DNA of 64,000 bases, taken from assembly GCA_038888155.1 (NCBI GenBank), contig JAWAJB010000001.1, positions 192,001 to 256,000 of the forward strand, given 5' to 3'. Of this stretch, positions 40,201 to 58,692 are shown piece by piece; position 1 is the first letter of the stretch; each line of letters opens with the position of its first letter. The notes beneath the pieces are model-generated. The model was not told where the DNA came from. It ran no database searches and worked only from the letters and a program-made list of their open reading frames with translations. The position numbers and the translations under genes are program-made. Source of the stretch: Desulfurococcaceae archaeon (lineage in GTDB: Archaea; Thermoproteota; Thermoprotei_A; Sulfolobales; Desulfurococcaceae).

Positions 40201-40306
40201 GCCGCCGTGGCTCAGCCTGGTAGAGCGCCGGCCTTGTAAGCCAGGTTAGATTGCTAGGCCTGTCCGGGTGAGCCGGTGGTCGCGGGTTCAAATCCCGCCG
40301 GCGGCT
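40201..40306 (+). tRNA. tRNA-Thr(TGT) with 32-nt canonical 37/38 intron (40239-40270)
   Basis: GCCGCCG acceptor stem, GCTC/GAGC D stem, CCGGC/GCCGG anticodon stem, TGT at 40235-40237, TTCAAAT T loop; BHB central helix CTTG/CGGG; TATA-like TTTAAG upstream. Confidence 0.95.
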
Positions 40307-50942: not shown

Positions 50943-51055
50943 GAATTTCCACCTGAATACTCTACGTAAGGCACTTAATTTAAAAATAAATGAGTACGGG
51001 GGTTTAATACTCAAACGAGATCTTAGGAGTGGCGGGGCCCGCTATGAAGCGAGAG

Positions 51056-51098
51056 TAGCGGGGGGTGGATTTGAACCACCGACCTCGGGGTTATGAGC
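51056..51098 (-). tRNA. 3' half (positions 31-73) of interrupted/split initiator tRNA-Met(CAT)
   Basis: GCTCATAACCCCG-AGGTC-GGTGG-TTCAAAT-CCACC-CCCCGCT-A; anticodon CAT at 51093-51095; preceded by 22-nt leader AGCGGCAGCCCGGCCCCGCGAA. Confidence 0.95.
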
Positions 51099-51144
51099 TT
51101 CGCGGGGCCGGGCTGCCGCTCTATTATACTAGAGTGGTTTTCCG

Positions 51145-51160
51145 CTTATAAATTTTATCG
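51145..51160 (-). promoter_or_regulatory. BRE/TATA promoter for the tRNA-iMet 3' half
   Basis: CGATAAAA-TTTATAAG ending 24 nt upstream of the leader start (51120). Confidence 0.75.
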
Positions 51161-51272
51161 CTGGGGCAAGGAAATATGCCTGTTGCGTTAGTTGATGTAA
51201 ATGCTCCTGTGTGATTGCTGCAGCTGACAACATTAAATAATTGGAGAAAAGTGAAGCGCCTGTAGAAATGTG

Positions 51273-51278
51273 AAAAAA
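51273..51278 (-). terminator. Oligo-T terminator after the tRNA-iMet 5'-half trailer
   Basis: TTTTTT on the minus strand at the end of the complementary trailer, followed by pyrimidine-rich sequence. Confidence 0.6.
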
Positions 51279-51296
51279 GCGGCAGCCACGGCGCCT

Positions 51297-51327
51297 CCCG
51301 CGGGCTACCAGGCTGCCCTACCCCGCT
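51297..51327 (-). tRNA. 5' half (positions 1-30) of interrupted/split initiator tRNA-Met(CAT)
   Basis: AGCGGGG-TA-GGGC-AGCCTGGTA-GCCC-G-CGGG; A1:U72 and G29-G30-G31/C39-C40-C41 initiator hallmarks once joined; trailer AGGCGCCGTGGCTGCCGCT. Confidence 0.95.
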
Positions 51328-51363
51328 GTTAAACCCCGCCAATTCTACCTTTCTGTTTTATCC

Positions 51364-51371
51364 CTTAAAAA
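51364..51371 (-). promoter_or_regulatory. TATA box for the tRNA-iMet 5' half
   Basis: TTTTTAAG on the minus strand; implies a TSS near 51340 and a ~13-nt 5' leader. Confidence 0.6.
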
Positions 51372-51417
51372 CTTGAAGAGCTGGGCGAGCGAAGCCGATA
51401 TAGCTGCCAATTTACTC

Positions 51418-58593: not shown

Positions 58594-58692
58594 GGCCCGG
58601 GTAGCTCAGCCTGGTAGAGCGCCGGGCTGTGGACTCCCGAGATGATGGGGACAGATACCCGGAGATCCCGGGTTCAAATCCCGGCCCGGGCC
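58594..58692 (+). tRNA. tRNA-His(GTG) with genome-encoded G-1 and 24-nt canonical 37/38 intron (58633-58656)
   Basis: G-GCCCGGG acceptor, GTG at 58629-58631, strict BHB (CTGT/ACAG helix, GGA and ATA bulges), C73 discriminator. Confidence 0.96.

Follow-up and report, generated by a model that had tools for sequence, protein, structure and literature searches.

How does a member of the Desulfurococcaceae obtain an initiator tRNA when standard scans of its genome call no gene for one? We addressed this question for the window, a stretch of 64,000 nt in contig C1 of its source assembly (GCA_038888155.1, hereafter G000). Two pieces of an initiator tRNA-Met gene lie on its minus strand, a 5' piece of 31 nt (51327-51297) and a 3' piece of 43 nt (51098-51056), with a spacer of exactly 198 nt between them. 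The observation of a split initiator tRNA in the window is confirmed. As to its meaning, the sequence makes it probable that this is the sole initiator tRNA gene of G000, split at position 30/31 into adjacent same-strand halves that would be made as separate RNAs and trans-spliced. The two halves are:

51297..51327, minus strand: 5' half of initiator tRNA-Met (acceptor 5' strand, D arm, anticodon-stem 5' strand to position 30)
51056..51098, minus strand: 3' half of initiator tRNA-Met (position 31, anticodon CAT, T arm, acceptor 3' strand, A73)

The joined 74 nt, spliced from the coordinates by script, are recognised by ARAGORN as tRNA-Met(CAT), and RNAfold gives a clean cloverleaf of -36.1 kcal/mol. 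The joined tRNA has an A1:U72 pair and an anticodon stem closed by three G:C pairs, which together are marks of archaeal initiators; the 3' half has no encoded CCA. Ten congeners have an intact initiator tRNA gene that matches both pieces at 100% identity, which excludes a chance origin. A first-pass annotation made from the letters alone had described the two minus-strand pieces, their spacing and the CAT cloverleaf with initiator identity, and all of these are borne out by the coordinates, by both programs and by the identity to congeners. It had also expected standard scans to miss the gene, as they do: nothing is called at the site by ARAGORN at default settings or by Rfam at gathering score, ARAGORN with introns of up to 120 nt allowed still misses it, and in a permissive Rfam scan the 3' piece gets no further than 21.7 bits, against a cut-off of 29. 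A circularly permuted gene, of the type of the Thermofilum pendens initiator tRNA, is ruled out by the order of the pieces, with the 5' half upstream of the 3' half on the minus strand.

G000 comprises 2.42 Mb in 134 contigs and is 97.4% complete with 6.4% contamination. No other initiator tRNA was found in this assembly: the tRNA list holds none, BLAST of the 301-nt locus against G000 returns only the locus itself, with no second copy of either half, and an uninterrupted initiator anticodon-arm motif is found nowhere in G000 (0 occurrences). Three other tRNAs with a CAT anticodon are present, all with G1:C72 and without the GGG/CCC stem. Two of them are elongator-type tRNAs with introns, and the third is probably tRNA-Ile2 or an elongator.

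Paired arms and transcription signals

The sequences that adjoin the halves contain complementary arms, promoter-like boxes and T runs:

51361..51374, minus strand: promoter-like box of the 5' half, of B recognition element (BRE)/TATA type, AAGTTTTTAAGGGA, score 10.7
51334..51341, minus strand: 5' leader strand TGGCGGGG of a leader-trailer helix, pairing with CCCCGCCA at 51037-51030
51278..51296, minus strand: trailer of the 5' half, consisting of the third bulge nucleotide and the GC-rich 5' arm GG(C)GCCG(T)GGCTGCCGCT
51273..51278, minus strand: T6 run, probable terminator of the 5'-half transcript, starting at the last base of the 5' arm
51156..51272, minus strand: AT-rich unique spacer with no gene or RNA family recognised by Rfam, BLAST or tblastn
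51142..51155, minus strand: internal promoter-like box AAATTTATAAGCGG for the 3' half, score 8.6
51099..51122, minus strand: predicted leader of the 3' half, consisting of AG, the arm AGCGGCAGCC-CGGC-CC, the central-helix strand CGCG and the bulge AA
51030..51055, minus strand: 3' trailer, a small hairpin CGCT-TCAT-AGCG followed by CCCCGCCA, which pairs with the 5' leader
50982..50986, minus strand: T5 run, tentatively taken as a possible terminator of the 3'-half transcript

The trailer and the predicted leader pair over 16 Watson-Crick pairs with two 1-nt bulges, exactly as first described, and this head-tail duplex has a predicted energy of -39.6 kcal/mol. Adjoining the arms, CGCG pairs with CGCG in a 4-bp helix between GG|A and AA|G, which gives a relaxed bulge-helix-bulge (BHB). 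When arms and BHB are entered as an explicit structure, all pairs are canonical (-63.2 kcal/mol). An unconstrained co-fold (-72.6 kcal/mol) retains the long helix and shifts the register near the junction. The register is fixed by the conserved ends of the 30/31 introns printed from relatives, which begin with AG (one exception begins TG) and end in CCGCGAA (CGCGAA in one relative of family f3). Cut sites at 30/31, as predicted in the first-pass annotation, are thus supported by comparison with relatives. In one congener (G004), an intron of 27 nt has its first 8 and last 11 nt in common with the window's spacer, the last 11 nt being those of the predicted leader of the 3' half.

To search for transcription signals, we derived a promoter matrix from the upstream regions of 42 tRNA genes on contigs C1-C4. 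Its consensus, AAGTTTTAAAACCC, typically starts 36-43 nt ahead of the mature 5' end. A scan of 51420-51020 yields three matches scoring at least 6, all on the minus strand. The strongest, at 51374-51361, lies 47 nt before the mature 5' end, scores at least as high as 57% of tRNA promoters and has a background frequency of 1.3e-4 per position. The internal box (background 5.5e-4 per position) stands 35 nt ahead of the leader arm and 57 nt ahead of the 3' exon, and the start that it implies, at ~51122, is the first base of the arm, giving a leader of ~24 nt before the 3' exon. The third match (7.1) falls on the anticodon loop and is regarded as spurious. Runs of T6 or longer occur in contig C1 at 0.29 per kb per strand. 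The middle 157 nt of the spacer are 62% A+T. No other copy of the spacer was found in G000 or in 40 relatives, which rules out a repeat or miniature inverted-repeat transposable element. With arms, T6 run and internal box in place, the 198-nt spacer looks like a gene boundary rather than an intron.

These elements suggest how the tRNA might be made. Transcription from the box at 51374-51361 would start near 51341 and stop at T6, giving a 5' half of ~69 nt with a GC-rich trailer; transcription from the box at 51155-51142 would start near 51122 and give a 3' half with a leader of ~24 nt. The two RNAs could be held together by the 16-bp arms, by the 7-bp acceptor stem and by the 8-bp leader-trailer helix, and the junction would fold into the relaxed BHB (GG|A, CGCG/CGCG helix, AA|G). 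A two-subunit splicing endonuclease of alpha/beta type would then cut both bulges, and RtcB would ligate position 30 to 31. Splicing enzymes are encoded in G000: two frames, 200 and 192 aa long, match PF01974 (94 and 31 bits; C4:102321-102572 and C3:116569-116805), and RtcB is found at 587 bits (C3:118380-119684). By analogy, we infer that the two PF01974 proteins form an alpha2-beta2 enzyme, an arrangement with crenarchaeal precedent. The central proposal of the first-pass annotation, a split and probably trans-spliced initiator tRNA, is therefore supported by the sole gene, by the T6 run and internal box, and by the predicted splicing enzymes.

The leader-trailer helix is an additional feature of initiator tRNA loci. 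A helix of at least 6 bp is present at the equivalent place in 50 of 56 distinct loci, compared to 22% with shuffled trailers. It comprises 7-9 bp, with its 5' strand 5-6 nt ahead of position 1, and it covaries across lineages (GGCGGGG/CCCCGCC, GGTGGGG/CCCCACC, TGGGAGGC/GCCTCCCA, GGGGGGC/GCCCCCC). It is retained even where the halves lie on opposite strands. The helix could be an end-processing signal or a clamp.

Relatives of the locus and competing explanations

Among 16 congeners, ten have an uninterrupted initiator tRNA gene. In three, a single intron (27, 31 or 42 nt) occupies the same 30/31 site, a further one contains three short introns, another has two short introns and a 187-nt spacer in the T loop, and one is unresolved. 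The mature initiator tRNA is identical across the genus; the exons are 100% conserved, and the window's spacer is unique. The two proteins that flank the gene in the window also adjoin the initiator tRNA gene in relatives, at 65-77% identity, in 12 and 14 of 19 loci. This indicates that intact, intron-bearing and split genes are states of one orthologous locus.

We extended the comparison by searching species genomes for 5' halves that lead into the start of an intron. This search returned 48 contigs, all from metagenome-assembled genomes (MAGs) and titled Desulfurococcales, Desulfurococcaceae, Sulfolobales, Acidilobaceae, Fervidicoccaceae, Thermodiscus, Thermoprotei or Thermoproteota. Spliced alignment reached a score of at least 96 of 148 for 32 contigs. 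The 16 below 96 were excluded from the counts; several of these reach the contig end, and others are opposite-strand cases. Some of the 48 contigs recur in our other set of relatives, and the two sets are not additive. The first-pass annotation had suggested a survey of related MAGs, and those found here contain intron-bearing and long-spacer initiator tRNA genes. Interruptions fall at 30/31, around 37/38 and in the T loop, and their lengths in the 32 aligned contigs are bimodal, with none between 63 and 178 nt:

Short introns: n = 64, 18-62 nt, 40% A+T, a run of at least five T in 0 of 64
Long spacers: n = 17, 179-1575 nt, 61% A+T, a run of at least five T in 12 of 17

A promoter-like box starts 55-71 nt before the next exon in 14 of the 17 long spacers. 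Matrix matches 52-68 nt before the exon number 21, compared to 1.5 expected from the match density inside spacers, and this interval scores at least 8 in 13 of 17 spacers (76%) compared to 4.3% of 210 control intervals. The window's spacer and six long spacers from the other set of relatives have the box at the same position (7/7), head-tail duplexes of -38 to -47 kcal/mol and, in 5 of 7, at least four T after the arm.

The relatives also include genes in which the arrangement of the halves is itself informative. Initiator tRNA halves with complementary arms lie on opposite strands in L091 (genome G026), L097 (G203), L100 (G222), L088 and L059. They are convergent in the first four and divergent in L059, where they are 2.6 kb apart and T6 directly follows the arm. 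With halves on opposite strands cis-splicing is impossible, and therefore trans-splicing is obligatory in at least five relatives. The trailer/leader duplex of G222 has an energy of -39.2 kcal/mol, and one compensatory change from G:C to A:T separates the arms of G026 from those of G203. The 29-nt segment from anticodon to T arm is single-copy in G026, G203 and G222 (98, 95 and 77% complete). TATA-like sequences of TTTAAA or TTAATA type were seen by eye upstream of the 3' arm in opposite-strand relatives, in the flanks as printed. In this group, arms wired to an internal promoter would clearly sustain trans-splicing, judging from these loci. In a further locus (L069), the 5' half and a segment spanning positions 39-74 are on different strands, and no partner arm was found. 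Two long spacers interrupt a single initiator tRNA gene in L048, L050, L056 and G026; these and L069 are candidate three-piece genes.

Several points weigh against trans-splicing in the window. The internal box is middling, scoring at or above only 38% of tRNA promoters. The matrix is nearly palindromic, and antisense matches of at least 6 occur in 10 of the 17 long spacers (sense, 14 of 17), so the orientation of a box rests on its position and not on its score. At least four T within 30 nt downstream are found in only 14 of 42 tRNA genes on C1-C4; therefore oligo-T is no universal terminator signature in G000. With adjacent halves on the same strand, read-through past T6 could also yield a cis-spliceable precursor, by analogy with the low-level product of Aeropyrum pernix. 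In addition, the spacer as assembled is without independent confirmation: Logan contigs of DNA runs X1 and X3 leave 51114-51281 uncovered, and no copy of the spacer was found in two metagenome contig scans. Finally, one raw metatranscriptome (X21), of which ~3% of the run was read, gave 0 reads on the stretch.

The most serious alternative is that the 198 nt are a single long cis intron in which T6 and the TATA-like box are functionless or leaky, or that both routes are used in mixture. The halves follow one another in the correct order on one strand, only 198 nt apart, the whole stretch can fold with its arms paired, and the ends of the spacer match a short cis intron of a congener. The promoter score is moderate and the matrix not strand-specific, and a rare read-through product is reported for A. 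pernix (PMC3218864). However, 198 nt exceeds the range of 11-129 nt given there for archaeal tRNA introns and falls in the upper of the two length modes in relatives. The absence of runs of five or more T from the 64 short introns contrasts with the T6 directly after the window's arm, the promoter-like box stands where 14 of 17 long spacers have one, and the TATA-like sequences picked out by eye in printed flanks recur in relatives whose halves lie on opposite strands. We therefore regard a cis intron as unlikely, though it deserves to be taken seriously.

A pseudogene or a misassembly, with the functional initiator tRNA gene left unassembled or the spacer joined by the assembler at shared tRNA sequence, is much less credible. 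The assembly is fragmented (134 contigs), has 6.4% contamination and is far larger than those of the 16 congeners (2.42 Mb compared to 0.9-1.5 Mb), and tRNA sequences common to several species break metagenome assemblies. The number of runs whose contigs leave 51114-51281 uncovered is four, while the flanks are present at 100% identity: X1 and X3 supply them in Logan contigs (both flanks in X1, the upstream flank in X3), and a Logan contig of X5 covers part of the downstream flank and leaves the same gap. In all three of these runs, the tRNA pieces themselves are covered. The joined tRNA forms in Logan contigs are intact or short-intron genes of other organisms. Logan contigs, however, drop rare paths, and a gap there proves nothing. 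Neither exon carries a mutation, complementarity between the arms is perfect and the junction motif equals the conserved intron ends; a chimeric join would not create perfect arms together with a conserved junction motif, which makes an artefact unlikely. Furthermore, the flanking genes are those that adjoin the initiator tRNA gene in congeners, and the 97%-complete assembly has no other initiator tRNA.

Least probable of all is that the spacer is kept for a product of its own, a small RNA or the 72-codon minus-strand open reading frame (ORF) at 51124-51342 that overlaps the region: C/D box RNAs embedded in tRNA-Trp introns are known (PMC3218864), but Rfam recognises no RNA family in the spacer even at permissive settings, the ORF shares sequence with both T6 and the 5' half of the tRNA, and none of 40 relatives has a homologue of the spacer.

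It should also be noted that reverse-transcription PCR across the mature junction is non-diagnostic in a community sample, because congeners whose genes are intact produce a mature tRNA of the same sequence. In X5, a sediment metatranscriptome, a 107-nt contig, which aligns to 51056-51106 and 51297-51327, contains both exons and a different short intron at 30/31. Carry-over of DNA may explain it, as may an unspliced precursor from a relative.

Other tRNA genes of G000 and the composition of the bin deserve separate mention. The G+C content of the contigs ranges from 35 to 53%, and G000 has two near-identical elongator tRNA-Met genes (C1, C29) and five tRNA-Ser(GCT) genes. Together with the size of G000, these observations suggest that contigs of a second organism are probably included in the bin. 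An intron-tolerant ARAGORN list for G000 contains no tRNA-Asp and is missing several other anticodons, and further non-canonical or split tRNA genes may be hidden there. Within the window, intron-containing tRNAs at 40201-40306 (+) and 58595-58692 (+) are found by Rfam and missed by default ARAGORN; intron-tolerant ARAGORN identifies them as tRNA-Thr(TGT) and tRNA-His(GTG).

Endonuclease genes in the long spacers

Many of the long spacers of relatives are occupied by ORFs. In several relatives, the 30/31 spacer contains an ORF of 359-383 aa (289 aa in one) on the strand opposite to the tRNA. Spacers at ~37/38 have ORFs of ~355 aa, and T-loop spacers have ORFs of ~211-225 aa. A LAGLIDADG-type motif is present in all spacer ORFs. 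Those with the LAGLIDADG fold are:

L072, 4455-5576, minus strand: LAGLIDADG-fold spacer ORF
L046, 728-1867, plus strand: LAGLIDADG-fold spacer ORF
L056, 1565-2644, plus strand: LAGLIDADG-fold spacer ORF
L083, 3535-4686, plus strand: LAGLIDADG-fold spacer ORF
L050, 1061-2128, minus strand: LAGLIDADG-fold spacer ORF
L050, 320-997, minus strand: LAGLIDADG-fold spacer ORF
L070, 1383-2018, minus strand: LAGLIDADG-fold spacer ORF
L032, 791-1867, minus strand: LAGLIDADG-fold spacer ORF

The T-loop ORFs pass the cut-off of Pfam LAGLIDADG_3 (E 1e-7 and 2e-12), and the other spacer ORFs fall below it. A PDB profile search of the spacer ORFs gave a weak match to an I-DmoI/I-CreI chimera (E 0.1). An AlphaFold model of one 30/31 ORF (predicted local distance difference test score, pLDDT, 89.9) was used for a Foldseek search, which returned LAGLIDADG enzymes including I-Tsp061I and I-DmoI at a probability of 0.97-1.00. 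The LAGLIDADG assignment of the 30/31 ORFs is thus settled by the fold search, not by sequence profiles. The C-terminal part of the 30/31 and 37/38 ORFs (alignment A1, positions 247-352) also gave a weak profile match to the ISC1926 TnpA catalytic domain in the PDB (E 0.01), and this match was not echoed by the fold search.

The 30/31 ORF family is rare, with 5 cluster matches in a large protein collection and presence in 17 of 325 genomes of the order. None of the 16 congeners has it, and G000 gives no match in a profile search. Pieces of the initiator tRNA lie beside the ORF in 10 of 10 loci examined. Several copies are frameshifted or riddled with stops, the 252-nt spacer of G027 contains a relic of the ORF C-terminus (E 4.6e-6), and an endonuclease gene or relic lies between the opposite-strand halves of G026, G203 and G222. 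This pattern is that of a homing element that invades, decays and shrinks.

For the window itself, tblastn with the ORFs of five relatives found no endonuclease relic in 51000-51400 (all E > 0.5). In a MAFFT alignment the window's arms look similar to those of other 30/31 elements, and the core-motif test, which also matches T-loop spacers, does not discriminate for arm homology. The spacer would descend, we infer, from the BHB intron that congeners still carry at 30/31. Whether it also passed through an endonuclease-bearing element, of which it would be a decayed, endonuclease-less remnant, is a proposition for which we judge the sequence evidence to be evenly balanced.

More generally, the initiator tRNA of Desulfurococcales may be a homing site for BHB-bounded LAGLIDADG elements with GC-rich arms and a promoter for the downstream exon. 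Invasion would directly turn the gene into a trans-spliced split gene at one of three positions (30/31, 37/38 or the T loop), sometimes giving three pieces or opposite-strand halves; later loss of the endonuclease would leave spacers of ~200 nt, such as that of the window, and further deletion would leave short cis introns. We give this proposal an equal chance of being right or wrong.

Precedents and meaning of a split initiator tRNA

The window's gene is a new case of a split tRNA with adjacent halves, and its closest precedent is tRNA-Asp(GUC) of A. pernix. There, a '121-nt intron' was found to contain an internal promoter and a 14-bp GC stem, and northern analysis detected two separate halves and no full precursor (Chan, Cozen & Lowe 2011, PMC3218864). 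As in the window, the halves are ordered on the same strand, the spacer of more than 100 nt was first read as an intron and contains a BRE/TATA box with a start 20-25 nt before the 3' exon, the junction BHB is followed by a long GC-rich stem, and relatives have uninterrupted genes. The two cases differ in that the window encodes an initiator, is split at 30/31 instead of 37/38 and has a spacer of 198 instead of 121 nt. The window's BHB is also relaxed, with a weak or absent outer exon helix, and the window's gene is known from sequence alone.

Other split tRNAs share single aspects of this arrangement. tRNA-Lys(CUU) of Staphylothermus marinus, S. hellenicus and Nanoarchaeum equitans is divided at the same 30/31 site into pieces of 31 and 43 nt (PMC3218864); in contrast to the window, it is an elongator tRNA and its halves are ~4.5 kb apart or farther. 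The first-pass annotation had pointed to no earlier split initiator tRNA from Desulfurococcales. A split initiator tRNA as such has a precedent in N. equitans, which, like the window, encodes its initiator tRNA-Met in two separate halves (PMC3218864). That tRNA is joined at 37/38 from halves ~32 kb apart in a different phylum. In Thermosphaera aggregans, the halves of tRNA-Asp(GUC) lie on opposite strands, as do the convergent halves of G026, G203, G222 and L088 but not those of the window, which share one strand.

Homing endonucleases in BHB introns have a precedent in archaeal rRNA, whose introns carry LAGLIDADG genes (I-DmoI, I-Tsp061I). The spacers of relatives resemble them in BHB-type junctions and LAGLIDADG fold. 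They differ from them in that the host is a tRNA, the 30/31 ORF is on the opposite strand and a promoter-like box precedes the downstream exon; the window's own spacer, furthermore, has no ORF or detectable relic.

Caldivirga maquilingensis has a tri-split tRNA-Gly, which resembles the candidate three-piece genes in L048, L050, L056 and G026. The window's gene, in contrast, has two pieces only, and the pieces in relatives are adjacent, not dispersed. The tri-split tRNA-Gly is mentioned in PMC4033280 and PMC10714607, and according to reviews up to 2014, trans-spliced tRNA genes numbered 29 in seven genomes (PMC4033280). We found no paper in the open-access literature searched that links homing endonucleases to archaeal split tRNA genes. 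In the open literature searched (including the available text of PMC4033280 and PMC4090602), repeated splitting of the initiator tRNA, endonuclease genes between halves, opposite-strand halves and candidate three-piece genes of this tRNA appear to be undescribed.

One practical consequence is that standard tRNA finders miss the gene, so that an initiator tRNA would be reported as absent from G000 and from many related MAGs. An essential, single-copy tRNA assembled from two RNAs is also rare. Here, one orthologous locus is found intact, with a short intron and split in different species, and relatives add endonuclease-bearing spacers, decayed endonuclease genes and opposite-strand halves. This makes testable the question of whether split tRNAs are ancestral or are late derivatives of introns and mobile elements, and we favour an origin that is late, repeated and driven by mobile elements. 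If the initiator tRNA is indeed a homing site of the kind proposed here, these loci would offer the first direct view of the birth and decay of a split tRNA gene.

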